Virus record (IMG/VR): IMGVR_UViG_3300045988_087472
Span: 1-31,536 of that record
Source of the DNA: a virus
Lineage: Duplodnaviria > Heunggongvirae > Uroviricota > Caudoviricetes
DNA: 31,536 bases
Direction: 5' to 3' (one strand)
The translations under genes were made by a program, and so were the position numbers. The stretch's first letter is position 1. Each line of letters opens with the position of its first letter. The notes below the pieces were generated by a model. It did not search any database. It saw nothing but the letters and a program-made list of their open reading frames with translations, and was not told the DNA's origin. This document shows, in pieces, positions 3,519 through 31,536 of the stretch.

Positions 3519-3615
3519 AGGAGCACCATTTCTTGAATTGCTAAGTAATCTTAGTTTTTATTGACCAAAGATAGATTTGTAATTAGCATCTAATAAAACT
3601 TAGTTTGGAGGGCGT
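3519..3615. promoter_or_regulatory. Divergent cI/cro intergenic region with candidate operators and rightward promoter
   Basis: Palindrome CTAAGTAATCTTAG at 3541-3554; CTTAGTT at 3550-3556 and 3599-3605; -35-like TTGACC at 3561-3566 with weak -10 TAGCAT at 3584-3589. Confidence 0.5.
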
Positions 3616-8715: not shown

Positions 8716-9474
8716 ATGAGCATGAACCTTGAAGCCTTACCAAAATATTACTCCCCAAAATCTCCAAAATTGAGCGATGACGCACCGGCGACAGGCTCTG
8801 GTGGTTTAACGATTACGGATGTGATGGCTGCGCAGGGGATGGTGCAGTCGAAAGCACCACTGGGTTTTGCCTTATTCCTGGCAAAAGTTGGTGTTCAGGA
8901 TCCTCAGTTTGCGATTGAAGGTCTGCTCAATTACGCGATGGCACTGGATAACCCGACATTGAATAAATTGAGTGAAGAAACCCGGTTACAGATCATCCCT
9001 TACCTTGTGAATTTTGCCTTTGCTGATTATTCCAGGTCTGCGGCAAGTAAGGCTCGCTGTGAGCATTGTGCTGGTACTGGATTTCATAATGTATTGCGCG
9101 AAGTGGTGAAACACTCCAGAAGCGGTGAATCTGTTATCAAGGAGGAGTGGGTGAAGGAACTATGTCAGCATTGTCATGGTAAGGGAGAAGTCAGCACAGC
9201 GTGCAGAGGGTGTAAGGGTAAAGGTATTGTCCTGGATGAAAAAAGGACCCGGCTTCATGGCACGCCTGTTTATAAGATTTGTGGGCGTTGCAATGGAAAC
9301 CGGTTTAGCCGTTTACCAACCACACTGGCGCGGCATCATGTCCAGAAGCTGGTACCAGACCTGACGGATTATCAGTGGTACAAAGGATATGCAGATGTCA
9401 TTGATAAACTGGTTACAAAGTGCTGGCAGGAAGAAGCATATGCAGAGACACAATTGAGAAAGGTGACAAGATAA
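8716..9474 (+). CDS. Late-gene antiterminator Q-like protein with four CxxCxGxG zinc-finger repeats (252 aa)
   Basis: Position immediately upstream of a promoter/terminator pair and the lysis cassette; Cys-rich repeats CEHCAGTG, CQHCHGKG, CRGCKGKG, CGRCNGN. Confidence 0.6.
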   Translation: MSMNLEALPKYYSPKSPKLSDDAPATGSGGLTITDVMAAQGMVQSKAPLGFALFLAKVGVQDPQFAIEGLLNYAMALDNPTLNKLSEETRLQIIPYLVNFAFADYSRSAASKARCEHCAGTGFHNVLREVVKHSRSGESVIKEEWVKELCQHCHGKGEVSTACRGCKGKGIVLDEKRTRLHGTPVYKICGRCNGNRFSRLPTTLARHHVQKLVPDLTDYQWYKGYADVIDKLVTKCWQEEAYAETQLRKVTR

Positions 9475-12969: not shown

Positions 12970-13095
12970 GAATTAATGTCATCATCAGCCTGGGGAGGGG
13001 GAGGTCAAATCTCTGCGACCGCGCGCCTTCCGGACCGCCCGCCCCATCGTTTTTTTATACCCGCGAAAAATGAAATTTAACCAGGAGTGCCGCAT

Positions 13096-13590
13096 ATGGC
13101 TGGAACGGCGGGGCGTTCCGGGCGTCGCCCCAAGCCAACGGCGCGCAAGGCGCTGGCCGGAAATCCCGGCAAGCGAGCCCTGAACAAAGATGAACCTGTT
13201 TTTACGCCCATCAAAGGTGTTGAGCCACCGGAGTGGTTCGCTGAAGAAGATCTCCCTCTCGCCACGATCATGTGGCAACTGACAACCAAAGAACTCTGCG
13301 GTCAGGGCCTGCTGTGCGTGACTGACCTCGCGGTGCTTGAGCGGTGGTGCGTGGCCTACGAGTTCTGGCGACGTGCCGTGAAAAATATTGCCAGACAGGG
13401 CAACACCATCACCGGTGCAATGGGCGGTATGGTCAAAAATCCTGAGCTGACCGCCAAAAAAGAACAGGAGTCCGAGATGAGCAGTACGGGGGCAATGCTC
13501 GGACTCGACCCCAGCAGCCGCCAGCGTCTGATTGGCCTGGCGGGGCAGAAGAAAGCCACTAACCCGTTTCTGAAAATTATCGAATCATGA
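13096..13590 (+). CDS. Terminase small subunit (164 aa from the ATG)
   Basis: Position upstream of the large terminase; basic N-terminus; ATG at 13096 sits 8 nt after SD AGGAG, whereas the track GTG start at 13087 abuts the SD. Confidence 0.75.
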
Positions 13591-15320
13591 GCCGGAAATC
13601 TTACCCCAACGTAAATGCTGCCAATCAGTATGCCCGGGATGTCGTGCGCGGAAAGATTGTGGCCTGCCAGTTTGTGATTCAGGCCTGCCAGCGCCATCTT
13701 GATGACCTGATGGCGGAAAAAAGTAAGTCGTTTCGTTACCGCTTCGACAAGGATCTGGCTGAACGGGCCGCCAAATTTATTCAGCTGTTGCCGCACACCA
13801 AGGGTGAGTGGGCATTTAAACGGATGCCCATCACGCTGGAGCCGTGGCAGCTCTTTGTGATCTGCTGCGCGTTTGGCTGGGTCAATAAAGGCTCCCGGCT
13901 GCGCCGCTTCCGGGAGGTGTATACCGAAATCCCCCGTAAGAACGGCAAATCGGCAATCTCTGCCGGTGTTGCCCTGTATTGTTTTGCCTGTGATAACGAG
14001 TTTGGCGCGGAAGTGTATTCCGGTGCCACGACAGAGAAACAGGCGTGGGAAGTCTTTCGCCCGGCGCGACTGATGTGTAAACGCACACCCATGCTGACGG
14101 AAGCGTTCGGGATTGAGGTTAACGCCTCAAACATGAACCGTCCGGAGGATGGGGCGCGGTTTGAACCGCTGATTGGTAACCCCGGTGATGGTTCATCACC
14201 CCACTGTGCGGTGGTGGATGAATATCACGAGCACGCCACAGATGCGCTTTACACCACGATGCTTACCGGGATGGGGGCGCGACGTCAGCCACTGATGTGG
14301 GCCATTACCACCGCCGGGTACAACATTGAGGGGCCGTGCTACGACAAACGGCGGGAAGTCATCGAGATGCTCAACGGCTCGGTGCCCAACGATGAACTGT
14401 TCGGGATCATCTATACCGTTGACGAAGGCGACGACTGGACCGACCCGCAGGTACTTGAAAAAGCTAACCCGAATATCGGTGTGTCGGTTTATCGCGAGTT
14501 TTTGTTAAGCCAGCAGCAACGTGCGAAAAATAACGCCCGTCTGGCAAACGTCTTTAAAACAAAACACCTCAATATCTGGGTGTCGGCGCGTTCGGCGTAT
14601 TTCAACCTGGTGAGCTGGCAGAGCTGCGAGGATAAATCACTGACTCTTGAGCAGTTCGAGGGGCAGCCGTGCATTCTGGCCTTTGACCTGGCGCGTAAGC
14701 TGGATATGAACAGCATGGCGCGACTTTATACCCGCGAGATTGACGGTAAAACGCATTACTACAGTGTGGCCCCGCGTTTCTGGGTACCGTATGACACGGT
14801 GTACAGCGTCGAGAAAAATGAAGATCGCCGGACAGCCGAACGCTTTCAGAAATGGGTGGAAATGGGCGTCCTGACCGTTACCGATGGTGCAGAGGTGGAT
14901 TATCGCTACATCCTCGAAGAGGCCAAAGCGGCGAACAAAATCAGCCCGGTCAGCGAGTCACCCATCGACCCCTTCGGGGCGACCGGGCTGTCACATGACC
15001 TTGCTGATGAAGACCTGAACCCCATCACCATCATTCAGAACTACACCAACATGTCCGATCCGATGAAAGAGCTGGAAGCGGCAATTGAATCGGGGCGCTT
15101 TCATCATGATGGCAATCCCATCATGACCTGGTGTATCGGCAACGTGGTCGGCAAAACTATTCCGGGTAACGATGATGTGGTGAAGCCCGTCAAAGAGCAG
15201 GCGGAAAACAAAATTGACGGTGCAGTTGCGCTGATTATGGCGGTTGGCAGAGCCATGCTGTATGAGAAAGAAGACACGCTGTCTGACCACATTGAGTCCT
15301 ACGGGATCCGCTCGCTTTAA
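13587..15320 (+). CDS. Terminase large subunit (577 aa)
   Basis: ATPase and nuclease regions (for example VVDEYHEH); size and position; start overlaps the small-subunit stop. Confidence 0.9.
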
Positions 15321-15331
15321 CTGAGGTAATT

Positions 15332-15514
15332 ATGATCATGCTGATTCTCGCGCCTCTGGTGGGCGTGCTGGGGGCGCTTTTGCTGGCGTATGGTGCCTGG
15401 CTGATTTATCCCCCGGCGGGGTTTGTTGTTGCCGGGGCGTTGTGTCTGTTCTGGTCGTGGCTGGTGGCGCGATATCTCGACCGTACACAGCTGTCTGTCG
15501 GCGGAGGTAAATAG
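15332..15514 (+). CDS. Small membrane protein (60 aa, two hydrophobic segments), hypothetical
   Basis: Track ORF with SD GAGG; lies between the large terminase and portal genes. Confidence 0.4.
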
Positions 15515-16755
15515 TGTTCTTTTCGGGATTATTTCAACGAAAAAGTGACGCGCCGGTGACCACCCCAGCAGAGCTGGCGGATGCTATAGGGCTGTCATAT
15601 GACACCTATACCGGAAAGCAGATCAGCAGCCAGCGGGCCATGCGACTGACGGCGGTTTTTTCCTGCGTCAGGGTGCTGGCAGAGTCGGTCGGGATGTTGC
15701 CCTGCAATCTGTATCACCTGAACGGCAGCCTGAAACAGAGAGCCACCGGCGAACGTCTGCATAAGCTGATCTCCACGCATCCCAATAGCTATATGACGCC
15801 GCAGGAGTTCTGGGAGCTGGTGGTCACCTGTCTGTGCCTGCGGGGAAACTTTTACGCCTACAAAGTGAAAGCATTTGGCGAAGTGGCTGAACTGCTGCCC
15901 GTCGATCCTGGCTGTGTGGTACCGAAGCTTAACAGTAGCTGGGAGCCGGTCTATCAGGTCACATTCCCGGACGGCTCCACGGATGTGCTGACCCAGGAGG
16001 ATATCTGGCATGTGCGCACGCTGACGCTGGACGGTCTGGTGGGGCTGAATCCCATCGCCTATGCCCGCGAGGCAATATCGCTGGCAGCTGCGACCGAAGA
16101 GCACGGGGCCAGACTGTTCAGCAATGGTGCGGTGACGTCGGGTGTGTTGCGTACAGAGCAGACGCTGTCAGATCAGGCTTACGAGCGCCTGAAGAAAGAT
16201 TTTGAGGAGCGTCACACCGGGCTTGGTAATGCTCACCGCCCGATGATCCTTGAGATGGGGCTGGACTGGAAGTCGATGGCGCTGAACGCCGAGGACAGCC
16301 AGTTCCTGGAAACCCGCAAGTTTCAGCTTGAAGAAATTTGTCGTCTGTTCCGTGTGCCATTGCACATGGTGCAGAACACCGATCGCGCCACCTTCAACAA
16401 TATCGAAGAGCTGGGGCTCGGATTTATCAACTATTCACTGGTGCCGTATCTGACCCGCATTGAGCAGCGGATCAACACCGGACTGGTACGAAAAAGTAAG
16501 CAGGGTGTTTATTACGCCAAATTTAACGCCGGGGCGTTACTGCGCGGGGATATGAAGTCCCGTTTTGAAGCCTACGCCACCGGGATTAACTGGGGAATTT
16601 ACTCTCCCAATGACTGCCGCGACCTGGAAGATATGAATCCGCGTCCCGGTGGTGATGTCTATCTCACACCGATGAACATGACCACGAAACCCTCCGATGG
16701 CAGTAAAGCCGGTAAGCAGAAGGATAACGCCAATGCAGACGAAACAACGTCTTGA
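15514..16755 (+). CDS. Portal protein (HK97 family, 413 aa)
   Basis: Size, position after the terminase, conserved portal-like sequence; GTG start with SD GGAGG. Confidence 0.9.
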   Translation: MFFSGLFQRKSDAPVTTPAELADAIGLSYDTYTGKQISSQRAMRLTAVFSCVRVLAESVGMLPCNLYHLNGSLKQRATGERLHKLISTHPNSYMTPQEFWELVVTCLCLRGNFYAYKVKAFGEVAELLPVDPGCVVPKLNSSWEPVYQVTFPDGSTDVLTQEDIWHVRTLTLDGLVGLNPIAYAREAISLAAATEEHGARLFSNGAVTSGVLRTEQTLSDQAYERLKKDFEERHTGLGNAHRPMILEMGLDWKSMALNAEDSQFLETRKFQLEEICRLFRVPLHMVQNTDRATFNNIEELGLGFINYSLVPYLTRIEQRINTGLVRKSKQGVYYAKFNAGALLRGDMKSRFEAYATGINWGIYSPNDCRDLEDMNPRPGGDVYLTPMNMTTKPSDGSKAGKQKDNANADETTS

Positions 16756-17383
16756 TGTACCGCTGAGTCTGAAATCTGTCAGTGACTCCGGTGAGTTTGA
16801 AGGATATGGCTCCGTCTTTGGTGTAAAGGACAGTCACGATGATGTGGTGATGTCCGGGGCATTTGCTGCGTCCCTGCGGGCGTGGAGTGACAGAAAAGCG
16901 TTACCTGCGCTGCTCTGGCAGCACCGCATGGATGAGCCCATCGGTGTTTACACCGAAATGAAGGAAGACGATGTCGGGCTTTACGTCAGAGGGCGGTTGC
17001 TCATTGATGATGATCCCCTGGCAAAACGCGCACATGCACACATGAAGGCCGGTTCGTTAACCGGCCTTTCTATTGGGTACGTCCTGAAGGACTGGGAATA
17101 CGACCGGACGAAAGAAGCCTTTCTGCTGAAAGAAATCGACCTCTGGGAAGTCAGTCTGGTGACGTTTCCGTCTAACGACGAGGCGCGGATCAGCGACGTC
17201 AAGAACGCACTGGCCCGCGGGGAAATCCCCGAACAGAAAAAAATCGAAAGAGTCCTGCGTGATGTCGGACTCTCCCGTACCCAGGCCAAAGCATTCATGG
17301 CCGGGGGCTATGGCGCACTGTCCCTGCGCGACGCTGAGGATGTGGGCTCTGCACTGAATGCACTGAAAAATCTGAACTTCTAA
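16733..17383 (+). CDS. Prohead maturation protease (HK97 family, about 216 aa)
   Basis: Track ORF 16697..17383; ATG at 16733 has an AAGGA SD; position between portal and capsid genes. Confidence 0.8.
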   Translation: MQTKQRLDVPLSLKSVSDSGEFEGYGSVFGVKDSHDDVVMSGAFAASLRAWSDRKALPALLWQHRMDEPIGVYTEMKEDDVGLYVRGRLLIDDDPLAKRAHAHMKAGSLTGLSIGYVLKDWEYDRTKEAFLLKEIDLWEVSLVTFPSNDEARISDVKNALARGEIPEQKKIERVLRDVGLSRTQAKAFMAGGYGALSLRDAEDVGSALNALKNLNF

Positions 17384-17397
17384 TCAGGAGAAATACG

Positions 17398-18603
17398 ATG
17401 GCGGTTGATATTAAAGATGTCGAACAGGTCGCGCAGGAGCTGCAGCAGAAGTTTGACGACTTCAAAGCAAAGAACGACAAGCGCGTGGATGCGATTGAGC
17501 AGGAAAAAGGCAAACTTGCCGGGCAGGTGGAAACCCTGAACGGGAAACTCAGCGAGCTGGAAAACCTCAAAAGCGATCTTGAAAAAGAGCTGCTTGAGCT
17601 GAAACGTCCGGCAGGTGGTGCGCAAAATAAACTGGCCACCGAGCATAAAGAAGCGTTTGTGGGCTTCCTGCGTAAAGGCCGTGAAGATGGCCTGCGCGAT
17701 CTGGAGCGCAAGGCATTACAGGTGGGCACCGATGAAGACGGCGGCTATGCCGTGCCGGAAGCACTGGATCGCAACATTCTCACCCTGCTGAAAGATGAAG
17801 TGGTGATGCGCCAGGAAGCCACGGTGATCACCGTTGGTGGTTCCGACTACAAAAAACTGGTGAATCTGGGCGGCACGGCTTCCGGATGGGTTGGCGAGAC
17901 TGACGCGCGCTCCCAGACTGCCACCTCAAAACTGGGCCTGATTGAACCTTTCATGGGGGAAATCTACGGTAACCCGCAGGCCACCCAGAAAATGCTGGAT
18001 GATGCCTTTTTCAACGTGGAAGCATGGATCAACAGCGAGCTGGCAACCGAATTTGCCGAACAGGAAGAAATTGCCTTTACCACCGGCGATGGTACCAAGA
18101 AGCCGAAAGGGTTCCTGGCGTATGAATCCACTGATGAAACCGATAAGGTCCGGGCGTTCGGCAAACTTCAGCATATTGTATCCGGCGAAGCGACGGGGGT
18201 GACCGCAGACGCCATTATCAAACTGATTTACACGCTGCGAAAGGCACACCGCACTGGCGCGAAGTTCATGATGAACAACAACAGCCTGTTTGCCATCCGT
18301 CTGCTTAAAGACAGCGAGGGTAACTATCTGTGGCGTCCGGGGCTGGAACTGGGACAGCCGTCCTCTCTGGCGGGTTACGGTATCGCTGAAAACGAACAGA
18401 TGCCGGATATCGCCGCTGATGCGAAAGCCATTGCATTTGGTAACTTCAAACGGGGTTACACCATCGTTGACCGTATCGGCACCCGCATTCTGCGTGACCC
18501 GTACACCAATAAACCGTTTGTCGGTTTTTATACCACCAAGCGCACCGGCGGGATGCTGGTCGATTCGCAGGCCATCAAACTGCTGAAGATTGCAGCGGCG
18601 TAA
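17398..18603 (+). CDS. Major capsid protein (HK97 fold, 401 aa) with N-terminal coiled-coil scaffolding (delta) region
   Basis: SD CAGGAG; coiled-coil N-terminus and conserved capsid body; position. Confidence 0.9.
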   Translation: MAVDIKDVEQVAQELQQKFDDFKAKNDKRVDAIEQEKGKLAGQVETLNGKLSELENLKSDLEKELLELKRPAGGAQNKLATEHKEAFVGFLRKGREDGLRDLERKALQVGTDEDGGYAVPEALDRNILTLLKDEVVMRQEATVITVGGSDYKKLVNLGGTASGWVGETDARSQTATSKLGLIEPFMGEIYGNPQATQKMLDDAFFNVEAWINSELATEFAEQEEIAFTTGDGTKKPKGFLAYESTDETDKVRAFGKLQHIVSGEATGVTADAIIKLIYTLRKAHRTGAKFMMNNNSLFAIRLLKDSEGNYLWRPGLELGQPSSLAGYGIAENEQMPDIAADAKAIAFGNFKRGYTIVDRIGTRILRDPYTNKPFVGFYTTKRTGGMLVDSQAIKLLKIAAA

Positions 18604-20631: not shown

Positions 20632-20802
20632 CATGTTTGTCAAACCTGTTAAAGGGCGGTCAGTTCCTGACCCTGCCCGCGGCGACCTTTTGCCCGCCGA
20701 AGGGCGAAATGTTGACGAGAACAACTACTGGCTGCGCCGTGAAGCAGCGGGTGATATCCGGCGCGTGAATAAAAAGGTGAATACCGATGACGATAAGCTT
20801 TA
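20632..20802 (+). CDS. Small conserved protein preceding the tail sheath (DUF2635-like, 56 aa)
   Basis: Manual translation MFVKPVKGRSVPDPARGDLLPAEGRNVDENNYWLRREAAGDIRRVNKKVNTDDDKL; SD GAGGA; overlaps the sheath start. Confidence 0.45.
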
Positions 20803-22283
20803 ACACCATTCCGTCGAATACGCTGGTTCCGTTGTTTTATGCGGAAATGGATAACCAGGCGGCGAATACTGCACAGGACAGCGGAGCATCGCTGCTGATT
20901 GGTCATGCCAATAACGGTGCAGAGATTGTTGCCAACAGTCTGGTACTGATGCCGTCGGCAGACTATGCACGCCAGATTTGTGGTGCGGGAAGTCAGCTGG
21001 CGCGTATGGTCGAGGCTTATCGCCAGACTGACCCGTTTGGCGAGCTGTATGTGATTGCCGTTCCTGAATCCACAGGCGCGGCGGCAACGGTTACGCTGAC
21101 GGTGACCGGGGCGGCAACCGAAACCGGCACGGTGAATGTGTATGTGGGACGTACCCGCGTGCAGGCACCGGTGACTAACGGCGATAACGTCACGATGATT
21201 GCCAGCAGTATCCAGGATGCCATCAATGCCGTTCCGGCCCTGCCGTTTACGGCTTCATCTTCGGCAGGCGTGGTTACACTGACCGCGCGTCATAAGGGGC
21301 TTTGCGGGAATGAAATTCCTGTCAGCCTCAATTACTACGGCTTTGGTGGGGGCGAAGTGCTGCCAGCGGGCGTACAGATTGCCGTGGCGACGGGTACCGC
21401 CGGAACGGGTGCTCCGGTTCTCACCGGCGCGGTGGCTGCAATGGCGGATGAGCCGTTTGATTATATCGGCCTGCCGTTCAACGACACGGCCTCCGTTAAC
21501 ACGCTGGTGACCGAGATGAACGATACCAGCGGTCGCTGGAGCTATGCGCGTCAGCTGTATGGTCATGTGTATACGGCAAAGATCGGCACGCTGTCAGAAC
21601 TGGTGACCGCAGGTGACCAGTTTAACCAGCAGCACATTACCCTGGCGGGGTACGAAAAAGACACCCAGACGCCTGCCGACGAGCTGGCGGCAAGCCGTAC
21701 CGCCCGCGCAGCGGTGTTTATCCGCAACGATCCGGCACGTCCCACGCAGACCGGTGAGCTGGTGGGTATGCTGCCTGCGCCGAAGGGGAAACGGTTCACG
21801 ATGACCGAACAACAGACCCTGCTGTCTCATGGCGTGGCAACGGCGTATGTCGAAAGCGGGGTACTGCGCATTCAGCGTGATGTCACCACGTACAGGAAAA
21901 ACGCTTACGGGGTTGCGGATAACAGCTACCTCGACAGCGAGACGCTGCATAGCAGTGCGTATGTACTGCGCAAACTGAAATCCGTCATTACCAGTAAGTA
22001 CGGGCGTCACAAGCTTGCCAGCGACGGTACCCGCTTTGGTCCCGGTCAGGCGATTGTCACCCCGGCGGTGATCAAAGGGGAACTGCTGGCAACCTACCGT
22101 CAGCTTGAGCGTGCGGGGATCGTGGAAAACTACGAACTGTTTAAGCAGTACCTGGTTGTGGAGCGTGATGCCAGCGATCCGAACCGCCTGAACACGCTGT
22201 TCCCGCCTGACTATGTTAACCAGTTGCGTGTCTTTGCCGTGGTTAACCAGTTCCGTCTTCAGTATTCAGAGGAGTCTGCATAA
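20787..22283 (+). CDS. Tail sheath protein (Mu gpL-like, 498 aa)
   Basis: Size, position before the tube gene, conserved sheath-like sequence. Confidence 0.85.
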   Translation: MTISFNTIPSNTLVPLFYAEMDNQAANTAQDSGASLLIGHANNGAEIVANSLVLMPSADYARQICGAGSQLARMVEAYRQTDPFGELYVIAVPESTGAAATVTLTVTGAATETGTVNVYVGRTRVQAPVTNGDNVTMIASSIQDAINAVPALPFTASSSAGVVTLTARHKGLCGNEIPVSLNYYGFGGGEVLPAGVQIAVATGTAGTGAPVLTGAVAAMADEPFDYIGLPFNDTASVNTLVTEMNDTSGRWSYARQLYGHVYTAKIGTLSELVTAGDQFNQQHITLAGYEKDTQTPADELAASRTARAAVFIRNDPARPTQTGELVGMLPAPKGKRFTMTEQQTLLSHGVATAYVESGVLRIQRDVTTYRKNAYGVADNSYLDSETLHSSAYVLRKLKSVITSKYGRHKLASDGTRFGPGQAIVTPAVIKGELLATYRQLERAGIVENYELFKQYLVVERDASDPNRLNTLFPPDYVNQLRVFAVVNQFRLQYSEESA

Positions 22284-22639
22284 TGGCCCGTATCGGGGGA
22301 ACCTGTTATTTCAAAATTGACGGTCAGCAGCTATCGCTGACCGGCGGCATTGAGGTGCCCATGAACAGGACGGTCAATGATGACATCATCGGCCTGGACG
22401 GTTCAGTGGACCGCAAGGAAACTCACCGTGCGCCTTATGTTAAAGGGACCTTCAAGGTGCCGAAGAATTTTCCGGTGAGCAAAATCACCTCGTCTGATGA
22501 GATGACCATCACTGCCGAGCTGGCGAACGGTCAGGTCTATGTACTGTCGTCTGCCTGGCTGCACGGCGAAGCGAACCATAATGCCGAAGAAGGGACGGTT
22601 GATCTTGAGTTCCACGGTGAAGAAGGGGATTACCAGTAA
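22283..22639 (+). CDS. Tail tube protein (118 aa)
   Basis: Immediately follows the sheath gene; size typical. Confidence 0.8.
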   Translation: MARIGGTCYFKIDGQQLSLTGGIEVPMNRTVNDDIIGLDGSVDRKETHRAPYVKGTFKVPKNFPVSKITSSDEMTITAELANGQVYVLSSAWLHGEANHNAEEGTVDLEFHGEEGDYQ

Positions 22640-22908
22640 TGAAAGAGCTTGAGTTAAAGAAACCGATTACTGCTCATGGCGAGACACTCTCCGTACTGGA
22701 GTTTGATGAGCCCACCGGGAAAGATGTCCGCGAGCTGGGGTATCCCTACCAGATGAATCAGGATGAGTCCGTCAGACTTCTGGCGCATGTGGTATCGAAA
22801 TACATTGTGCGGCTGGCGAAAGTGCCGCAAAACTCTGTCGACCAGATGTCTCCGGCAGACCTGAATGCTGCGGCGTGGCTTGTGGCTGGTTTTTTCCTCC
22901 AGGCCTGA
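22639..22908 (+). CDS. Tail assembly chaperone, short form (89 aa)
   Basis: Position between tube and tape measure genes; ends at a slippery heptamer. Confidence 0.7.
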   Translation: MKELELKKPITAHGETLSVLEFDEPTGKDVRELGYPYQMNQDESVRLLAHVVSKYIVRLAKVPQNSVDQMSPADLNAAAWLVAGFFLQA

Positions 22909-23057
22909 CGGCTGAATACCTCACTGATCGCTTCTTTGACTGCGCCAGCTACTGGCGCATTAATCCCTTCGAATTGCTGAATATGCCGATCAGTGAAATT
23001 CCCTTGCTGGTCAGTCAGGCAAACAGGATAGAGCAGGAGAAACGCACACATGGCTGA
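22890..23057 (+). CDS. -1 frameshift extension of the tail assembly chaperone (slippery site T_TTT_TTC at 22890-22896; extension ends at 23057)
   Basis: Canonical X_XXY_YYZ heptamer in the chaperone frame; the -1 frame is open for 54 more codons and overlaps the tape measure start. Confidence 0.6.
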   Translation, partial: FFPPGLTAEYLTDRFFDCASYWRINPFELLNMPISEIPLLVSQANRIEQEKRTHG

Positions 23058-24885
23058 ATTTGAGCTTAAGGCGTTGATCACCGGTGTCGACAGACTTTCT
23101 CCCGCGCTGTCGAAAATGCAAAAGAAAATCCGGGGATTTAAACGCCAGGCGGAAGAAGCATCACAGGGTGGGCTGGCGCTTGGTGGCGGACTGGCAGCGG
23201 GTCTGACGCTTTCCCTGAAATCTTATGCCGATCAGGAAAACGCCGCCACCGGGCTGAAAGTCGCCATGATGGATGCGAACGGCGAGGTCGGAAAGAGCTT
23301 TCAGGACATCAATAAACTGGCTATTGGCCTGGGTAACCAGCTACCCGGTACAACGGCTGATTTCCAGAACATGATGCAGATGCTGGTGCGTCAGGGGATC
23401 CCGGCAGAAAACATTCTTGGTGGTGTGGGTAAAGCGACAGCTTATCTTGCGGTACAACTGAAAAAAACACCGGAAGCGGCTGCTGAGTTTGCTGCAAAGA
23501 TGCAGGATGCTACCGGAACGGCGTCAGAAGACATGATGGGGCTGTTCGACACTATCCAGAAGGCGTTTTATCTGGGCGTTGACGATACCAACATGTTGTC
23601 CTTCTTCACTAAAACCAGTTCTGTTCTGAAGATGGTGAACAAGGACGGTCTTCAGGCTGCACAGAGCCTTGCCCCTATCAGCGTCATGATGGATCAGATG
23701 GGGATGAACGGGGAGTCGGCAGGTAATGCCCTGCGAAAAGTTATCCAGTCCGGATTAAGCGTTAAGAAAATCAGGGACGTCAATAAAGTCATGGCCCGCC
23801 AGAAACTCGGAGTGCAGCTCGATTTTACTGACGGCAAAGGGAGTTTTGGCGGTCTTGATAACATGTTCAGGCAACTGGCAAAGCTGCGAAAACTGACCGA
23901 CGTTAAGCGAACAGGTGTACTTAAGGCAATATTTGGTGATGATGCCGAAACCCTTCAGGTGGTCAATGCTCTGATCGATAAAGGAAAGGATGGTTACGAT
24001 CAGATCCAGCAGAAGATGAATAAACAGGCCAGCCTGAATAAACGTGTTCAGGCACAGCTTGGTACGCTGTCCAACCTGTGGGAGGCAATGACGGGGACCG
24101 CAACTAACGGTCTTGCAGCTATTGGCGGCGCATTTTCTGGTGACGCTAAAAATATCACGCAATGGCTGGGGGAGTTGGGGGAAAAATTCACGAAGTTTGC
24201 GGATGAAAATCCCCGGGTTATTCGCGGCGTCGTCGGGCTTGCTGCCGGTCTTGCGATTCTGAAACTGGGATTGATGGGCGTGGGCAGTGCCATCAGTATC
24301 GTCAGCAGGATCATGTCGATGACGCCGATTGGCATGATTGCGACGGCGATTGCCCTGGCTGCGGGATTAATTATCACTAACTGGGATGTTGTCGGACCTT
24401 ATTTTAAGAAACTCTGGGAAACCATTAGTCCTTATTTTGAGGCTGGCTGGGAACTTCTGAAGAAGGTTTTTGCCTGGTCGCCGCTGGGGATGGTGATCAA
24501 TAACTGGGGACCGGTTGTTAAGTGGTTTCAGCATATGTGGGATAAGCTGAAGCCGATTATTGAATGGTTTACCGACAGTTCCGGTGACACGGTCGATGCC
24601 ATTAACTCGGCGCAGTGGGGCGCGGGTGCTTATGATGCTTATGGGACGGGAATACCGGCACGGGGATACACTCCTTATCCGGCGGTGGATCCGGCTCAGG
24701 CAAACAACGCCTCCGATGCCACAGGCTCGAATCCCTTCATGATTAACAAAGCTTCTGCGCCAAAAGTTGATGGTGAGATCAAGGTCTCTTTTGTGAATTC
24801 GCCTCCGGGTATGCGGGTTATGGAAACGCGATCCAGCGGTTTTGATGTCAGCCATGATGTTGGCTATACGCGCTTTGGCAGGTAA
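23050..24885 (+). CDS. Tail tape measure protein (611 aa)
   Basis: Length, Ala/Gly-rich helical composition with C-terminal hydrophobic segments and W-rich region; position after the chaperone. Confidence 0.85.
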   Translation: MAEFELKALITGVDRLSPALSKMQKKIRGFKRQAEEASQGGLALGGGLAAGLTLSLKSYADQENAATGLKVAMMDANGEVGKSFQDINKLAIGLGNQLPGTTADFQNMMQMLVRQGIPAENILGGVGKATAYLAVQLKKTPEAAAEFAAKMQDATGTASEDMMGLFDTIQKAFYLGVDDTNMLSFFTKTSSVLKMVNKDGLQAAQSLAPISVMMDQMGMNGESAGNALRKVIQSGLSVKKIRDVNKVMARQKLGVQLDFTDGKGSFGGLDNMFRQLAKLRKLTDVKRTGVLKAIFGDDAETLQVVNALIDKGKDGYDQIQQKMNKQASLNKRVQAQLGTLSNLWEAMTGTATNGLAAIGGAFSGDAKNITQWLGELGEKFTKFADENPRVIRGVVGLAAGLAILKLGLMGVGSAISIVSRIMSMTPIGMIATAIALAAGLIITNWDVVGPYFKKLWETISPYFEAGWELLKKVFAWSPLGMVINNWGPVVKWFQHMWDKLKPIIEWFTDSSGDTVDAINSAQWGAGAYDAYGTGIPARGYTPYPAVDPAQANNASDATGSNPFMINKASAPKVDGEIKVSFVNSPPGMRVMETRSSGFDVSHDVGYTRFGR

Positions 24886-24909
24886 TGAAAAATTAATCTG
24901 TTAATGAGT

Positions 24910-24930
24910 CCCACTCCGGTGGGATTTTTT
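24910..24930 (+). terminator. Weak intrinsic terminator/attenuator after the tape measure gene (CCCAC-UCCG-GUGGG followed by AUUUUUU)
   Basis: 5-bp stem plus U6 tract read directly. Confidence 0.4.
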
Positions 24931-24945
24931 ATGTACGGAGTTTAT

Positions 24946-26274
24946 ATGACGTGGAAAGACAGACTTCAGGACGCGTCATTTCGCGGTGTGCCGTTTAAGG
25001 TTGAAGAAGAAAGTACGGGAACCGGTCGTCGTGTGGAAACGCACGAATACCCGAACCGCGACAAACCCTATACCGAAGACCTGGGGAAAATCACTTTCCG
25101 CCCGTCCATCACGGCTTATGTGGTGGGAGATGACTGCTTTGACCAGCGCGATCGCCTGATTGACGCGCTGAATAAACCCGGTCCCGGCACGCTTGTCCAT
25201 CCGACTTACGGTGAGCTGAAAGTCTGTGTTGACGGAGAGGTTCGGGTCAGCACATCGAAGAGTGAAGGGCGTATTGTCCGCTTTGACCTGAAGTTTGTCG
25301 AAGCGGGAGAACTCTCTTACCCCACTTCAGGTGCGGCGACGGCGCAGACGCTGATGTCATCCTGTTCTGCACTGGATGACTGCATCAGTGACAGCTTCAG
25401 CGGTTTCAGTATCGATGGCGTGGCGGATTTCGTGCAGAACGACGTTATTGGTAATGCCAGCATAATGCTGGGGTATGTTTCTGATGCGATGAAAGTGGTG
25501 GATTCTGCCGTATCGGATGCCGCCAGGCTGTTGCAGGGGGATATCTCGGTACTTCTGCCGCCGCCATCGTCAGGCAAAAATTTCGTTGAGCAGGTGCAGA
25601 AAATGTGGCGTACCGGGAAACGCCTTTATGGTAACGCCAGCGATCTGGTCACCATGATCAAAACGCTTTCCGGTGTCAGCCTCGGCAGTGATCTGCAACC
25701 GCGCGGCGTCTGGAAAACGGACAGTAAAACCACCGCTACGGCGACGCAGCAGCGTAACGTGGTTGCCAGCACCCTTCGTACGACCGCAATCAGCGAAGCG
25801 GCGTATGCCGTCACCCGATTGCCTGCGCCAACAACTTCCGCGGTGATGCAGAATGCCGCAGTGGGGCAGGCAACAACAGCTGCACAGAGCACCGGCTGGC
25901 CTTCCGTCACGCATCCGGCACTGAACAATGCACCGGCGATGAAAAACACGGTTGATCTGCCGACGTGGGAAGAACTGACTGACATTCGCGACACACTGAA
26001 TACGGCAATTGATAAGGAGTTGTCCCGTACAACCAGTGATGCGCTGTTTCTGGCGCTGCGCCGGGTGAAAGCAGATCTGAATGCGGATATCAACACGCGC
26101 CTTGAACAGTCTGCACGGATCATTCAGCGCACACCGGATGAGGTTTTACCCGCGCTGGTGCTGGCGGCGACCTGGTTTGATAACGCGACGCGTGACGCGG
26201 ACATTATCCGGCGTAATGCCATTACGCATCCCGGCTTTGTGCCGGTGATCCCTCTGAAGGTGCCAGTGCAATGA
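24946..26274 (+). CDS. DNA circularization protein (Mu gpN-like, about 442 aa)
   Basis: N-terminal MTWKDRLQDASFRGVPF signature of the DNA-circularization N-terminal family; track start 24904 would include the terminator hairpin, ATG at 24946 has SD GGAG. Confidence 0.8.
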   Translation: MTWKDRLQDASFRGVPFKVEEESTGTGRRVETHEYPNRDKPYTEDLGKITFRPSITAYVVGDDCFDQRDRLIDALNKPGPGTLVHPTYGELKVCVDGEVRVSTSKSEGRIVRFDLKFVEAGELSYPTSGAATAQTLMSSCSALDDCISDSFSGFSIDGVADFVQNDVIGNASIMLGYVSDAMKVVDSAVSDAARLLQGDISVLLPPPSSGKNFVEQVQKMWRTGKRLYGNASDLVTMIKTLSGVSLGSDLQPRGVWKTDSKTTATATQQRNVVASTLRTTAISEAAYAVTRLPAPTTSAVMQNAAVGQATTAAQSTGWPSVTHPALNNAPAMKNTVDLPTWEELTDIRDTLNTAIDKELSRTTSDALFLALRRVKADLNADINTRLEQSARIIQRTPDEVLPALVLAATWFDNATRDADIIRRNAITHPGFVPVIPLKVPVQ

Positions 26275-27350
26275 ACGATAACGTCACGCTACGGGTAAAT
26301 GGCCGGGAGTGGAATGGCTGGACATCGGTGCGCATCGGTGCCGGTATTGAACGGCTGGCGCGGGATTTCAGTGTGGAGATCACCCGCCAGTGGCCGGGAG
26401 ATGAGGGTATCACCACGCTTCAGCCGCGCATTAAAAACGGTTCAAAAGTGGAAGTGCTGATTGGTGATGAGCGGGTGATCACCGGCTGGGTGGAGGCGAC
26501 TCCCGTTCGTTACGATGCCCGTTCGGTCAGCACCGGTATTGCCGGACGCAGTCTGACCGCTGACCTGATTGACTGTGCAGCCGAACCGACACAGTTTAAC
26601 GGACGATCGCTGGTACAGATTGCGCAGGCGCTTGCTGCGCCTTTCGGCATTGAGGTGGTGAACAGCGGTGCGCCGTCGGGTGTTATTCCTGATGTCCAGC
26701 CTGATCACGGTGAAACGGTGATTGAGGTAATCAACAAAATACTCGGTCAGCAGCAGGCACTGGCTTACGACGATCCGCACGGCAGGCTGGTGATTGGCGG
26801 TATTGGCTCAACGCGGGCACATACCGCGCTGGTACTTGGGGAAAACATCCTTTCCTGCGATACGGAGAAGAGTATCCGGGAGCGGTTTTCTGTTTACCAG
26901 GTGGCGGGGCAGCGTGCCGGAAACGACGATGATTTCGGTGAGGCCACCACCACCGCGCTGCGGGCCCGCACAGAGGACGCATTTATTGCCCGTTACCGTC
27001 CGATGTATATCAGGCAGACAGGGCAGGCTACGGGGGCAGGCTGTATTGCGCGTGCTGACTTTGAAGCCCGGCAACGGGCGGCGCGGACGGATGAAACCAC
27101 CTATGTGGTGCAGGGCTGGCGACAGGGTAACGGTACGCTGTGGCAACCCAACCAGCGGGTGATTGTCTTTGATCCGGTCTGTGGTTTTGACAATACCGAA
27201 CTGCTTGTTTCGGAAGTCACGTTTACTCAGGACCAGAACGGCACCCTGACGGAAATCCGTGTCGGCCCGCCTGATGCTTATCTGCCTGAACCTGAAGACC
27301 CCGGCGCGCGGAAAAAGAAAAAAGCCAGAGTACAGGAGGACCCGTTCTGA
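26271..27350 (+). CDS. Baseplate hub protein (Mu gpP / gp44-like, 359 aa)
   Basis: Position in a conserved Mu-like baseplate cluster and size. Confidence 0.75.
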   Translation: MNDNVTLRVNGREWNGWTSVRIGAGIERLARDFSVEITRQWPGDEGITTLQPRIKNGSKVEVLIGDERVITGWVEATPVRYDARSVSTGIAGRSLTADLIDCAAEPTQFNGRSLVQIAQALAAPFGIEVVNSGAPSGVIPDVQPDHGETVIEVINKILGQQQALAYDDPHGRLVIGGIGSTRAHTALVLGENILSCDTEKSIRERFSVYQVAGQRAGNDDDFGEATTTALRARTEDAFIARYRPMYIRQTGQATGAGCIARADFEARQRAARTDETTYVVQGWRQGNGTLWQPNQRVIVFDPVCGFDNTELLVSEVTFTQDQNGTLTEIRVGPPDAYLPEPEDPGARKKKKARVQEDPF

Positions 27351-27898
27351 TGAGGACGATTGAAGCCATGCAGCGACAACTTCTCGGCCTGATTGGGCGG
27401 GCAGTGGTGAAAAGCATCAGTGCCGCCACGAAATGTCAGACCGTGGATGTGTCCCTGATTGCCGGTGAACCCAAAGCCGGGGTTGAACATCTTGAACCCT
27501 ACGGTTTTACCGCAAGGGCAAACAGCGGTGCGGAAGCGGTGGTGTTGTTTCCGGATGGCGACCGTTCTCATGCGGTGGTTGTTACGGTGTCGGACCGGCG
27601 CTACCGCCTGAAAGGGCTGCATACGGGGGAGGTGGCTGTCTATGACGATCAGGGGCAGTCCGTGACGCTGACCCGGGAGGGGATCGTGGTGGACGGTGCA
27701 GGTAAAACAATCACGTTTCGCAATGCGCCTAAGGCTCGTTTTGAAATGGACCTGGAAGTGACCGGACAGGTGAAAGACCTGTGCGACTCCACCGGCACCA
27801 CCATGTCAGCGATGCGGCTTGCCTATAACGGGCATCGTCACAGAGAGAACGGTCAGGGCAGTAACACCGACAAACCTGATAAAGCGATGGAGGCATGA
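27350..27898 (+). CDS. Baseplate spike / assembly protein V-like (Mu gp45-like, 182 aa)
   Basis: Position and size. Confidence 0.7.
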   Translation: MRTIEAMQRQLLGLIGRAVVKSISAATKCQTVDVSLIAGEPKAGVEHLEPYGFTARANSGAEAVVLFPDGDRSHAVVVTVSDRRYRLKGLHTGEVAVYDDQGQSVTLTREGIVVDGAGKTITFRNAPKARFEMDLEVTGQVKDLCDSTGTTMSAMRLAYNGHRHRENGQGSNTDKPDKAMEA

Positions 27899-28323
27899 TG
27901 GAACTGTGGCTGACGGTGAACGGTAAACGCACCTGCGCCAGCGCACCGCTGGATCCGCTGACCCGCGCCGTGGTGATTTCCCTGTTTACCTGGCGGCGGG
28001 CGGAGCCTGATGACAACGCCGACGTCCCGATGGGATGGTGGGGGGATACCTGGCCTGCGGTACAGAATGACCGTTACGGCTCCCGACTGTGGCTGCTTCA
28101 GCGCAGCAAACTGACCAATCAGCTGGTGCAGACGGTAAGGGGATATATCCGCGAATGCCTGCAATGGATGATTGATGACGGCGTGGTGTCCCGTATTGAT
28201 CTGGATATCCGCCGCACCGGGATTAATGAGCTGGGTAACAGTATCACCCTCTGGCGTCGTGACGGACCGGTAATGATTTCTTTTGATGATCTGTGGAGTG
28301 CGATAACGCATGGCGGACAGTGA
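27895..28323 (+). CDS. GP46-family baseplate protein (142 aa)
   Basis: Position and size. Confidence 0.7.
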   Translation: MMELWLTVNGKRTCASAPLDPLTRAVVISLFTWRRAEPDDNADVPMGWWGDTWPAVQNDRYGSRLWLLQRSKLTNQLVQTVRGYIRECLQWMIDDGVVSRIDLDIRRTGINELGNSITLWRRDGPVMISFDDLWSAITHGGQ

Positions 28324-29368
28324 ATTTCAACGCCCGACGCTGGCAGAAAATATCAGTATGCTCCGTAACGATTTATTCGCCAGGCTGGACGTCAGCGACA
28401 CGCTCCGGCGCATGGATGAAGACGTGCGGGCAAAGGTGTATGCGGCGGCGCTGCATACGGTTTACGGTTACATCGATTATCTGGCAATGAACATGCTGCC
28501 TGACCTGTGCGATGAGTCCTGGCTGGCGCGACATGCTGCGATGAAACGGTGTCCGCGCAAGGGGGCCACGTCTGCCAGCGGGTATATGCGCTGGGAAGGT
28601 GTCAGCGATGGCCTGAAGGTGACCGCCGGGAGTGTTATTCAGCGCGATGACCTGGTTCAGTACACGACAACTGACGATGCAACCAGCTCCGGTGGTGTCC
28701 TGCGCGTGCCGATCGCCTGCTCAAGTGCAGGTGCGGTCGGTAACGCTGACGACGGTACGGCATTAATCCTGGTCACGCCGGTGAATGGTCTGCCGTCTTC
28801 CGGTGTGGCTGACACCATTACAGGCGGATTTGATACTGAAGAGCTGGAAACGTGGCGCGCCCGCGTCATTGAGCGGTATTACTGGACGCCGCAGGGCGGG
28901 GCTGACGGGGACTATGTCGTTTGGGCTAAAGAAGTGCCCGGCATTACCCGCGCATGGACATACCGTCACTGGATGGGAACGGGAACTGTCGGTGTGATGA
29001 TTGCCAGCAGTGACCTGATTAATCCCATTCCGGAAGAATCAACGGAAACGGCAGCAAGACAACATATCGGGCCACTGGCCCCGGTGGCAGGCTCTGATTT
29101 GTATGTATTCAGGCCGGTGGCACATACGGTGGATTTTCATATCCGCGTGACGCCGGACACACCAGAAATACGGGCTGCCATTACCGCGGAGTTGCGTTCG
29201 TTCCTGCTGCGTGATGGTTATCCGCAGGGAGAACTGAAGGTATCGCGTATCAGTGAGGCGATTTCCGGTGCGAACGGGGAATACAGCCATCAGTTGCTTG
29301 CACCGGTGGACAATATCTCCATTGCGAAAAACGAACTGGCGGTACTGGGGACGATTTCATGGACGTGA
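28310..29368 (+). CDS. Baseplate J-like protein (Mu gp47-like, 352 aa)
   Basis: Size and position. Confidence 0.8.
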
Positions 29369-29943
29369 CAAACGATGATTACATCCGCCTGTTATCGGCA
29401 CTGTTGCCGCCCGGTCCGGCGTGGTCAGCCAGCGATCCGGCGATTGCCGGTGCGGCACCGTCATTAACCCGTGTTCATCAGCGTGCGGATGCCCTGATGC
29501 GGGAGCTGGATCCGCGCACCACCACTGAACTGATAAACCGCTGGGAGCGTCTGTGCGGTCTGCCGGATGAATGTATTCCCGCAGGGACACAGACCCTTCG
29601 TCAGCGTCAGCAACGGCTGGATGCGAAGGTTAACCTGGCGGGCAGCATCAACGAGAATTTTTATCTTGCACAGCTTGCTGCCCTGGGCAGACCAGATGCC
29701 AACATCACGCGATACGACAAAAGCACGTTCACCTGCTCATCGGTCTGTACTGACGCGGTGAATGCGCCGGAATGGCGGTATTACTGGCAGGTCAACATGC
29801 CAGCCGCCACAAACACCACCTGGATGACATGTGGCGATCCCTGTGATTCCGCGCTGCGTATCTGGGGCGACACCGTTGTCGAATGTGTGCTTAACAAACT
29901 CTGCCCGTCGCATACCTACGTAATTTTTAAATATCCGGAGTAA
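29359..29943 (+). CDS. DUF2313 tail protein (Mu gp48 / YmfQ-like, 194 aa)
   Basis: Position after the J-like gene and before the fibre gene. Confidence 0.7.
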
Positions 29944-29946
29944 TCC

Positions 29947-30768
29947 ATGCATCGTATAGACACGAAAACCGCGCAGAAGGATAAGTTCGGCGCGGGTAAG
30001 AACGGTTTTACCCGTGGTAACCCCCAGACCGGCACACCTGCCACCGATCTGGATGATGACTACTTTGACATGTTGCAGGAGGAACTTTGCAGTGTTGTGG
30101 AGGCATCCGGTGCCAGCCTAGAGAAGGGGCGGCATGACCAGCTGCTTACAGCGCTTCGTGCGCTGCTGTTAAGCCGCAAGAATCCGTTTGGCGATATCAA
30201 ATCGGATGGCACGGTGAAAACGGCTCTCGAAAACCTTGGTTTGGGAGAAGGTGCTCCAGCTATTGGCGTTCCGTTCTTCTGGCCGTCCGCCGCAATGCCA
30301 AATACTGTAATCGACAGTTGGTCCAGTATGGTGTTTTTGAAGTTCAACGGCGCGAAATTCTCTGCCACTGATTACCCTGTGCTGGCGAAAGTGTTTCCGG
30401 CGCTAGCATTACCTGACGCACGGGGTGATTTCATTCGTATCTGGGATGATGGGCGCGGGATTGATGTCGGACGTACCCTACTTTCAGGGCAATCACACAC
30501 AATTATGGATCATGCACACAATATGGAATTGTGGACGGGGGACGGGCTTGCCGCAGGAAGTGCACGGGAAGGAGTAAACCCAGGAATACTGGCTACATAC
30601 GGTGACGGGGGAATAGTTAAAACGGACGAACCCGGTCTTAAGGTGCCTTCCTCACTACGAGCTCTTAGCTCTCGTAGTGTTAAACGTTATGGTGAAATTA
30701 GTGGAAATGTAGATACAGAAACCCGTCCACGAAATATTGCATTTAACTTTCTGGTGAGGGCTAAATAA
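29947..30768 (+). CDS. Tail fibre protein with conserved N-terminal region and AT-richer variable C-terminal region (273 aa)
   Basis: Followed by a tail fibre assembly gene; composition shifts within the gene. Confidence 0.75.
30224..30249. other. Candidate serine-invertase crossover site (hix/gix-like): CTCTCGAAAACC-TT-GGTTTGGGAGAA, two imperfect inverted 12-bp half-sites around a 2-bp core
   Basis: About 20 of 26 positions match the recalled hixL sequence; sits inside the tail fibre gene, where Mu/P1/e14-type sites lie. Confidence 0.45.
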
Positions 30769-31361
30769 TGATACCTGTTTTTGATGAAAATGGGCTGGCT
30801 ACAGTGCCGGGCGATATGCGTTGTTTTTATTATAATGCAGTAACGTATGAATATACCGGCTGGGCTGATGAATATATTAATACTGGCGGAAGTATACCCG
30901 CCTGTTCCACTGGTATTGACCCGGGCGAAAACATCCCGGGAAAAGTGGCAGTATTTACGGGTAAGGGATGGAGCCATGAAGAAGACCATCGCAATGAGAC
31001 CGTTTACTCAACTGAAAATGGCGCAGCTGTTACAGTGGATTATATCGGTGCCATCAAAGACGGTTATGTCACGCTTTCACCGTTAACGCCATACGATAAA
31101 TGGGATGGTGAGAAATGGGTGACGGATACCGAGGCACAGCATAGCGCCGCAGTAGAAGCGGCAGAAGCACAGCGCCAGTCGCTGATTGATGCTGCAATGG
31201 CTTCCATCAGTCTGATTCAACTGAAATTACAGGCTGGGCGGAAGCTGACGCAGCCAGAAAACACCCGACTTAACGCTGTGCTGGATTACATTGACGCGGT
31301 GACGGCAACAGATACCAGCACAGCGCCGGACGTCATCTGGCCTGAACTGCCGGAGGCGTAG
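30768..31361 (+). CDS. Tail fibre assembly protein (Tfa, 197 aa)
   Basis: C-terminal LDYIDAVTATDTSTAPDVIWP motif typical of Tfa chaperones; immediately follows the fibre gene. Confidence 0.8.
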   Translation: MIPVFDENGLATVPGDMRCFYYNAVTYEYTGWADEYINTGGSIPACSTGIDPGENIPGKVAVFTGKGWSHEEDHRNETVYSTENGAAVTVDYIGAIKDGYVTLSPLTPYDKWDGEKWVTDTEAQHSAAVEAAEAQRQSLIDAAMASISLIQLKLQAGRKLTQPENTRLNAVLDYIDAVTATDTSTAPDVIWPELPEA

Positions 31362-31536
31362 ACCATTCAATATCTGGCGCACCGGAAGTATCGACCAGTT
31401 CCAGTGCGTCCAGATAATCCAGCCACAAATTATATTGCGCCAGTTCCTCACCTTTCAGGTAAGCGTAAACTGACCGCCGTATGTAGCCATCAGACGAGAA
31501 TTGGTAACTTAGACGCCCATCTGATATAGACGGACA
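31333..31536 (-). CDS. C-terminal part of a second, convergent tail fibre assembly paralog (gene start lies beyond the window end)
   Basis: Minus-strand frame open from the window edge to the stop at 31335..31333; ends ...YNLWLDYLDALELVDTSGAPDIEWSTPPAVQAR, paralogous to the plus-strand Tfa C-terminus. Confidence 0.6.
   Translation of the reverse strand, partial: CPSISDGRLSYQFSSDGYIRRSVYAYLKGEELAQYNLWLDYLDALELVDTSGAPDIEWSTPPAVQAR

Follow-up and report, generated by a model that had tools for sequence, protein, structure and literature searches.

Does the DNA at the right end of this phage sequence carry a tail-fibre gene whose distal part can be exchanged by inversion, and, if so, is the switch still complete? 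The window, i.e. the whole stretch of 31,536 nt that was analysed, ends with a tail-fibre gene, a gene for its assembly chaperone and the beginning of a convergent gene, and the first-pass annotation had interpreted this end as a probable invertible host-range switch. We propose that positions 30224-31458 very probably represent one half of an invertible P-segment of the e14 type, namely the half on the side of the fibre gene, and that this segment lies at the end of a near-complete prophage resembling e14. The system is the Pin/e14 P-segment switch of the Hin/Gin/Cin/Pin inversion family, which is therefore already known, and its cargo alleles are unlike those of K-12. The P-segment of e14 has been known since the 1980s. 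The features at this end of the window are as follows.

29359..29943, plus strand: ymfQ/Mu gp48-like baseplate gene (Pfam Phage_Mu_Gp48, E 9.5e-26)
29947..30768, plus strand: tail-fibre gene of the StfP family, 273 aa; N-terminal part constant as far as the crossover site, C-terminal part variable and within the segment
30224..30249, plus strand: putative Pin crossover site (pix), 26 bp, 12-2-12 layout, central TT at 30236-30237
30236..31458, no strand assigned: window portion of the putative invertible P-segment, between the site core and the point of IS insertion
30768..31361, plus strand: tfa, tail-fibre assembly chaperone gene, 197 aa (Pfam Caudo_TAP, E 6.4e-28; PHROG 105, E 2e-81)
31333..31458, minus strand: 3' remnant of tfa', 41 codons and stop, truncated by the IS; chaperone gene of the alternative fibre end
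31459..31536, plus strand: left end of an ISEc23-like element of the IS66 family; its terminal inverted repeat starts GTAAGCGT

The sequence that raises the question is located at 30224-30249, where the plus strand reads CTCTCGAAAACC-TT-GGTTTGGGAGAA. It lies within the fibre ORF, spans codons 93-101 and encodes the amino acids ALENLGLGE. It had been described as two hix/gix-like half-sites around a 2-bp core, and this description is confirmed: the two 12-bp half-sites are imperfect inverted copies of each other (9/12 positions matching), and the complete site is identical at all 26 positions to the site located inside stfP of the K-12 e14 prophage. The site is unique in the window when up to three mismatches are allowed, shuffled sequences giving an expectation of zero, and a looser search of the window for AAACC-NN-GGTTT did not find a second credible site. 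The published repeat of the P-segment in e14, TTGGTTTGGGAGAAGG, is 16 nt long (PMC12529663) and falls at window positions 30236-30251.

The fibre gene itself has the composite structure expected around such a site. It is directly preceded by the ymfQ/gp48-like gene, as in e14, where the gene order in K-12 is ymfQ-stfP, and this upstream gene is annotated as encoding a YmfQ family protein in the relatives. Residues 1-103 of the fibre protein are 99% identical to residues 1-103 of K-12 StfP, and its C-terminal part is 42% identical to K-12 StfE. The PHROGs comparison places residues 1-103 and residues 75-273 in different tail-fibre families, which fits a modular protein that is jointed at the crossover site; with Pfam only a sub-threshold Collar match was obtained, and it is through PHROGs that the tail-fibre identity was confirmed. 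The gene had also been noted to become AT-richer downstream of the site. This holds, modestly: the G+C content declines from 0.577 (baseplate genes) and 0.541 (constant part of the fibre gene) to 0.495 (variable part of the fibre gene) and 0.454 (N-terminal half of tfa). The plus-strand gene at 30768..31361 had been assigned to Tfa, and Pfam agrees that its product is a Caudo_TAP protein. It is 62% identical to K-12 TfaE and is the chaperone cognate to the fibre end that is currently expressed.

What lies on the other side of the segment can be read from chromosomes that are nearly identical to the window. Positions 29900-31458 are 99.9% identical to the E. coli chromosomes CX15, CX05, 0H23/25/26 and others. 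In the CX15 record (L001; window coordinate = L001 coordinate + 23899), the segment part at 30236-31458 corresponds to L001 6337-7559 with two mismatches, and tfa is followed by tfa' (147 aa, Caudo_TAP) and then by a 124-aa ORF on the reverse strand that contains a Gp53-like_C domain. This ORF is the alternative C-terminal end of the fibre. At L001 8198-8223, 1845 nt from the first site, the sequence TTCTCCCAAACC-AA-CGTTTATGAAAA forms an inverted partner site. It is identical to the partner site of K-12 e14, and its core, AA, is TT inverted, i.e. the same core dinucleotide as that of the window site. The pinE gene starts 55 nt past the partner site and encodes a protein with Resolvase (E 2.6e-52) and HTH_7 domains; the PinE protein of the relatives is 94% identical to K-12 PinE and 77% identical to Gin of Mu. 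The same layout is found in ECONIH4, in which the fibre gene is frameshifted. The full set of cargo genes is seen in the relatives; of this set, the window contains tfa, the variable end of the fibre gene and, convergent to them, the 3' remnant of tfa'. The cargo alleles of the window are already present and annotated in RefSeq, with pinE annotated beside identical copies. The first-pass annotation had placed the invertase, the partner site and the alternative end of the fibre just beyond the end of the window. All three are indeed present in the 99.9%-identical chromosomes, but the window itself contains a single site and no invertase gene, and its sequence past 31458 is an ISEc23-like element.

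Direct evidence for inversion comes from these relatives. The clonal isolates CX15 and CX07 have chromosomes of equal length, and an inversion is the sole difference between them over 13.5 kb. When L001 6337-8211 is re-inverted, CX07 and CX15 agree with 0 mismatches, and the outermost possible breakpoints coincide with the site cores, the central TT of one site at 6337 and the central AA of the other at 8211, which gives an invertible segment of 1875 bp in CX15. In CX07, the fibre gene encodes 207 aa, consisting of the constant N-terminus and the gp53-like end, and is followed by tfa', while the window-type fibre end sits beside pinE as an "incomplete" ORF. The clonal series are split by orientation (CX15/CX05 versus CX07/CX04/CX21, and 0H26/25/23 versus 0H24/18/15), and both junction types are found among complete genomes, including unrelated ones. 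In addition, the CX15 assembly contains an extra 18-kb linear "plasmid" contig that corresponds to the chromosomal prophage end with the segment flipped, which indicates that both orientations were present in one DNA preparation. The view that this locus is an invertible tail-fibre switch is therefore supported by an exact site-to-site inversion between clonal, near-identical prophages and by the two orientations in the CX15 assembly. The e14 segment is known to invert and phase-vary in culture (PMC4272514), and its inversion is catalysed by PinE, PinQ and PinR (PMC12529663).

These data also bear on whether the 26-bp palindrome-like sequence might be a chance feature of the fibre coding sequence that has no function in recombination. 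Its location within coding sequence (ALENLGLGE) is what can be said in favour of this reading, and nothing more, whereas the 26/26 identity to the e14 site with zero chance matches expected, the exact inversion that ends in the site between clonal isolates, and the homology to phage 500465-2 (see below), which starts at base 2 of the site, all speak against it. We give it practically no weight, and the exact CX15/CX07 inversion together with the identity to the e14 site refutes it. A multi-site shufflon of the type found on p15B (Min) or R64 was also considered and rejected, as the window contains one site, and the records L001, L002, L003, L005 and L007 contain exactly two.

The situation at the very end of the window is different from that in the relatives. 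The first-pass annotation had reported a partial minus-strand ORF meeting tfa tail-to-tail. The paralogous C-terminus is present: the reverse-strand frame carries LWLDYLDALELVDTSGAPDIEW and then ends in DIEWSTPPAVQAR and a stop. However, the frame corresponds to tfa' for its last 41 codons only (31336-31458), and the remainder is IS sequence, as the 26 codons "upstream" (31459-31536, 78 nt) are the IS end, read through by chance. The end of this gene as given earlier had to be amended: the true stop is at 31333-31335, so that tfa is overlapped by 29 nt. The translation of the remnant ends in LKGEELAQYNLWLDYLDALELVDTSGAPDIEWSTPPAVQAR and the stop, which is identical to the C-terminus of the 147-aa Tfa' of CX15.

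The final 78 nt are identical to positions 3510-3587 of record L004, which are the left end of an annotated 2532-bp ISEc23-like element of the IS66 family. This copy has an 8-bp target duplication, CATTTCAG, and its annotated genes are tnpA, tnpB and an ISEc23 family transposase. From 31459 onward, the window reads GTAAGCGTAAACTGACCGCCGTATG, and the right end of the L004 element is the imperfect inverse, ending in AATACGGTGCTCCGTTGACGCTTAC. A terminal repeat starting with GTAAGCG, which we take to be the defining motif of the IS66 family, is present from window position 31459. Across 2784 E. coli genomes there are 8027 matches to these 78 nt, some chromosomal and some plasmid-borne, in unrelated contexts and genes. 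The possibility that they constitute a divergent N-terminal module of tfa' was rejected, since they match thousands of unrelated loci and an annotated IS66-family end. Because the final 78 nt are the end of an IS, tfa' is broken after its last 41 codons. The identity to every relative ends at 31458, and the junction indicates that an ISEc23-like element has transposed into tfa' at 31458/31459. The tnpA, tnpB and transposase genes would then be located on the plus strand past the end of the window.

An alternative explanation of this junction is that tfa' and the IS were joined by the assembler, and that the true locus is uninterrupted, as in CX15, reading on into CCTTTCAGACGACCAATTG. The origin of the sequence leaves some room for this: a source-like contig, ENA ERZ915364 k127_16081 (32,915 bp, human-gut metagenome), which an exact look-up of the window's Tfa retrieved, ends 9 nt past the window. 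It is a k127 contig in the style of MEGAHIT, from a short-read metagenome assembly, and it breaks off after 87 nt of a highly repeated element, evidently because the assembler halted in the repeat. However, the change from tfa' to IS occurs at the exact first base of the terminal inverted repeat, as transposition yields, which argues for a real transposition and against an assembly chimera. Moreover, the window and contig L006 share the junction despite 11 differing positions elsewhere, and the 8 bp that precede the IS, CCTTTCAG, resemble the target duplication confirmed for the L004 copy. We therefore consider a chimeric junction very unlikely.

If the insertion is real, it may be asked whether the switch can still operate. 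Under one reading, the switch is a dead remnant here: pin, the partner site and the alternative end of the fibre would have been lost or split off, either through the IS66-family insertion or through a deletion or rearrangement that the IS mediated later, and the fibre would be locked in the StfE-like state. We regard this as a possibility to be taken seriously, though one that is less likely than the survival of the switch. It is consistent with the position of the IS end at 31459, inside tfa', where the contig stops, and with the finding that database genomes having this insertion together with an intact far side were not found, the exact 40-mer across the junction being absent from the genome-contig and viral-contig collections, and complete E. 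coli genomes having neither a contiguous match to 31200-31536 nor this IS insertion. Decay is also common at this locus, as illustrated by the frameshifted fibre gene of ECONIH4 and by K-12 e14, which is itself a defective remnant. On the other hand, multi-copy IS elements routinely break contigs, so that the end of the contig is uninformative on deletion, and a simple insertion keeps both crossover sites intact. Invertases of the Hin/Gin/Cin/Pin family handle segments of 1-4 kb (the H, G and C segments). Pin enzymes of other prophages are, in addition, able to act in trans (PMC12529663).

Under the simple-insertion model, the right end of the IS would be followed by CCTTTCAG and ACGACCAATTG, i.e. 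by the remainder of tfa'. The remainder of the segment, if kept, would be found about 2.5 kb further, past the IS, and the whole segment would measure about 4.4 kb. Should this remainder survive, the alternative orientation would probably be without an intact chaperone.

The mechanism that we propose for the switch is modelled on Hin and Gin. A dimer of a Pin-family serine invertase would bind the 26-bp site at 30224-30249 and a second dimer the inverted partner site, and the two invertase-bound sites would be assembled with a Fis-bound enhancer. This enhancer would be expected in cis, in the 5' part of the invertase gene and outside the window. Staggered cuts of 2 bp at the central TT/AA, a 180-degree rotation of the DNA and religation would then complete the inversion. 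In the Hin and Gin systems, religation after rotation needs identical core dinucleotides. Inversion would swap all sequence past fibre codon ~97. In the present orientation, the predicted product consists of the constant residues 1 to ~97 and a StfE-like, collar-type tip, followed by the chaperone Tfa; in the opposite orientation, the constant N-terminus would be joined to the gp53-like tip, followed by Tfa'. The orientation found in the window, with the StfE-like end and the TfaE-like chaperone, is the equivalent of the "inverted" state of K-12. As the fibre C-terminus would be replaced together with its cognate chaperone, receptor specificity may change, and the flip of the fibre tip may thereby alter the host range.

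The remainder of the window is that of a near-complete, e14-like temperate phage. It contains early and lysis genes (S24/HTH repressor, CII-like protein, KilA-N, DUF968, Q antiterminator, holin and lysin), head genes (small and large terminase, portal, S78 protease and HK97-type capsid) and tail genes (sheath, tube, tape measure, DNA-circulation protein and Mu gp44-48-like baseplate genes). The prophage thus combines an early region of lambdoid type with an HK97-type head and a contractile tail like that of Mu.

A different role for the locus is suggested by a 2025 paper, in which the flip of the K-12 e14 P-segment is reported to create StfE2, a short pinE-proximal chimera (PMC12529663). StfE2 consists of the stfE leader and a gp53-like domain, and it reportedly prevents adsorption of T2 and other phages (PMC12529663). 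The relatives of the window encode an analogous 124-aa ORF adjoining pinE, which begins with MMPFARYFCIFINVGLGE and contains the Gp53-like_C domain. On this basis, the locus might mainly serve the host, the flip being a superinfection-exclusion switch in which the 124-aa ORF, with a gp53-like variant unlike that of K-12, blocks adsorption like StfE2 does. We think that this is improbable as the main function. If true, the IS66 insertion could be a domestication step, by which the alternative form of the virion is disabled and the exclusion protein is kept; and if the anti-phage role of StfE2 generalises, similar loci would be candidate defence switches.

Returning to the invertible fibre switch, the value of the locus as a discovery is small, the site being base-for-base that of e14 and the system long known, and its uses lie in annotation, in the intact phage and in the recognition of assembly artefacts. 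With respect to annotation, the fibre gene is labelled "hypothetical", "incomplete" or "StfP fragment" across genomes because the gene calls depend on the orientation of the segment. With respect to the phage, the window adds a near-complete e14-like member with a set of cargo alleles unlike that of K-12. Finally, assemblies are shaped by invertible segments and by IS copies, and both the extra "plasmid" contig of CX15 and the contig break here are examples of this.

The first-pass annotation had likened the locus to the Mu G-segment and e14, and sequence comparison reveals the same architecture as in both. K-12 e14 is the closest of the known systems. Both 26-bp sites are identical between e14 and the window or its relatives, and e14 shares with the relatives the order ymfQ-fibre-tfa-tfa'-fibre'-pinE, which in K-12 is ymfQ-stfP-tfaP-(tfaE-stfE)-pinE. 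The constant N-terminus of the fibre is 99% identical to that of the window, and PinE is 94% identical to that of the 99.9%-identical relatives. The segments are of similar length, with 1875 bp in CX15 and a published 1797 bp in K-12 e14 (PMC12529663). The two differ in their cargo alleles: identity amounts to 42% between the expressed tip and StfE, 62% between Tfa and TfaE and 58% between Tfa' and TfaP, and the alternative tip of the relatives is a gp53-like variant distinct from that of e14. Furthermore, the phage in the window appears to be intact, whereas e14 is a remnant, and tfa' of the window is cut by an IS66-family element.

The G-segment of Mu, with Gin and the S-U/U'-S' genes, resembles the relatives in having a constant fibre N-terminus, a site within the fibre gene and convergent chaperone genes, and in both the invertase gene lies just outside the far site and a gp48-like gene precedes the fibre gene. 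The gix site of Mu has the same architecture as the window site, with a shared 12-2-12 layout around AAACC-NN-GGTTT and identity at 18 of 26 positions. However, the G segment is larger (~3 kb), its fibre ends are longer, and its core is TC/GA instead of TT/AA. Similarity of the fibre and Tfa proteins to Mu S and U was not detectable, except for a weak one between Tfa' and U'.

A cassette shared across unrelated phages is seen in the P2-like Escherichia phage 500465-2 (Peduoviridae), which has the variable fibre end and tfa in common with the window at 92-94% nucleotide identity. In this phage, the cassette goes on with tfa' and an alternative end as well as a DNA invertase, and the crossover sites read TTCTCGCATACC-TT-GGTTTGGGAGAA and TTCTCCTAAACC-AA-CGTTTAAGAAAA. 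In contrast, neither the constant part of the fibre nor any of the phage backbone is related to the window, and the invertase is nearer to Gin (85%) than to PinE (76%). Since the homology sets in at base 2 of the site, with unrelated sequence on its upstream side, the site also delimits horizontal module exchange. Hin with the H-segment of Salmonella and Cin with the C-segment of phage P1 belong to the same invertase family and use the same type of 26-bp site, although Hin inverts a flagellin promoter and not a fibre coding end. The Pin, Gin, Cin and Hin enzymes are interchangeable, and the recent study of e14 cites work in which PinE acts on both the H and the G segment (PMC12529663).

In the P2-like Escherichia phage 500465-2 (L008), homology to the window begins at base 2 of the Pin crossover site (4000-4025 in L008, 30224-30249 in the window) and spans the variable end of the fibre gene and the adjoining assembly gene tfa at 92-94% identity, whereas the constant fibre parts of the two phages are unrelated. 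Besides its role in inversion, the invertase site is thus a boundary at which phage families exchange fibre modules.

The annotation of the fibre gene differs among genomes according to orientation and decay. In E. coli ECONIH4, whose prophage is otherwise 99.7% identical, the gene (L002 6048-6867) carries a frameshift, and its annotation consists of two pseudogene fragments, named "StfP incomplete" and "phage tail protein frameshifted". A separate case is the 18-kb linear "plasmid unnamed5" deposited for E. coli CX15 (NZ_CP081745.1, 1-18368). It is not a plasmid: its content is a second copy, 99.8-99.9% identical, of the prophage end in the chromosome and of the genes beside it, in which the P-segment is flipped relative to the CX15 chromosome and several frameshifts occur. 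It appears to be an artefact that the assembler produced from a population of mixed orientation.

In the window, tfa', the convergent paralogue of tfa, is interrupted by an ISEc23-like element of the IS66 family, which occupies 31459-31536; the sequence ends inside this element, 78 nt in for the window and 87 nt in for the source contig. The 8 bp preceding the element, CCTTTCAG (31451-31458), are similar to CATTTCAG, the confirmed target duplication of another ISEc23-like copy (L004), and this likeness hints at a target preference of the element, or else may be a coincidence. The tfa'::IS junction is shared with L006, a human-gut metagenome contig that is the only one found to encode the exact Tfa of the window. 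The two sequences differ at 11 positions (23196 and within 27709-28017), 10 of which fall within ~310 bp in gp45/gp46-like genes, and the window therefore seems to derive from another assembly or strain that differs slightly from that of L006. We also observed an 18-nt inverted repeat with 83% complementarity, GCTGGATTACATTGACGC (31280-31297) and GCGTCCAGATAATCCAGC (31406-31423), which exists because the convergent tfa and tfa' encode paralogous C-termini (LDYIDA and LDYLDA); it could allow pairing within the transcript of either gene, or act as a short substrate for recombination.

Positions 1-29946 of the window constitute a near-complete, e14-like temperate phage. Its regions, and the silent fibre end next to the invertase gene pinE in the CX15 chromosome (L001), are as follows:

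Window 2892-3518, S24 repressor, in a lambdoid early region that also has CII-like, KilA-N and DUF968 genes, holin and lysin
Window 8716-9474, Q antiterminator of the same region
Window 13087-18603, HK97-type head
Window 20787-29943, Mu-type contractile tail
L001 7877-8251, minus strand, silent alternative fibre end, adjoining pinE

The silent end carries a start codon of its own, and its short hydrophobic leader, MMPFARYFCIFINVGLGE, shares 68% identity with the leader of K-12 stfE. The K-12 protein "StfE2" has been reported to block adsorption of phage T2 (PMC12529663), and the silent end is its structural analogue. While the e14 element of K-12 is a remnant, the phage in the window is an apparently intact counterpart.
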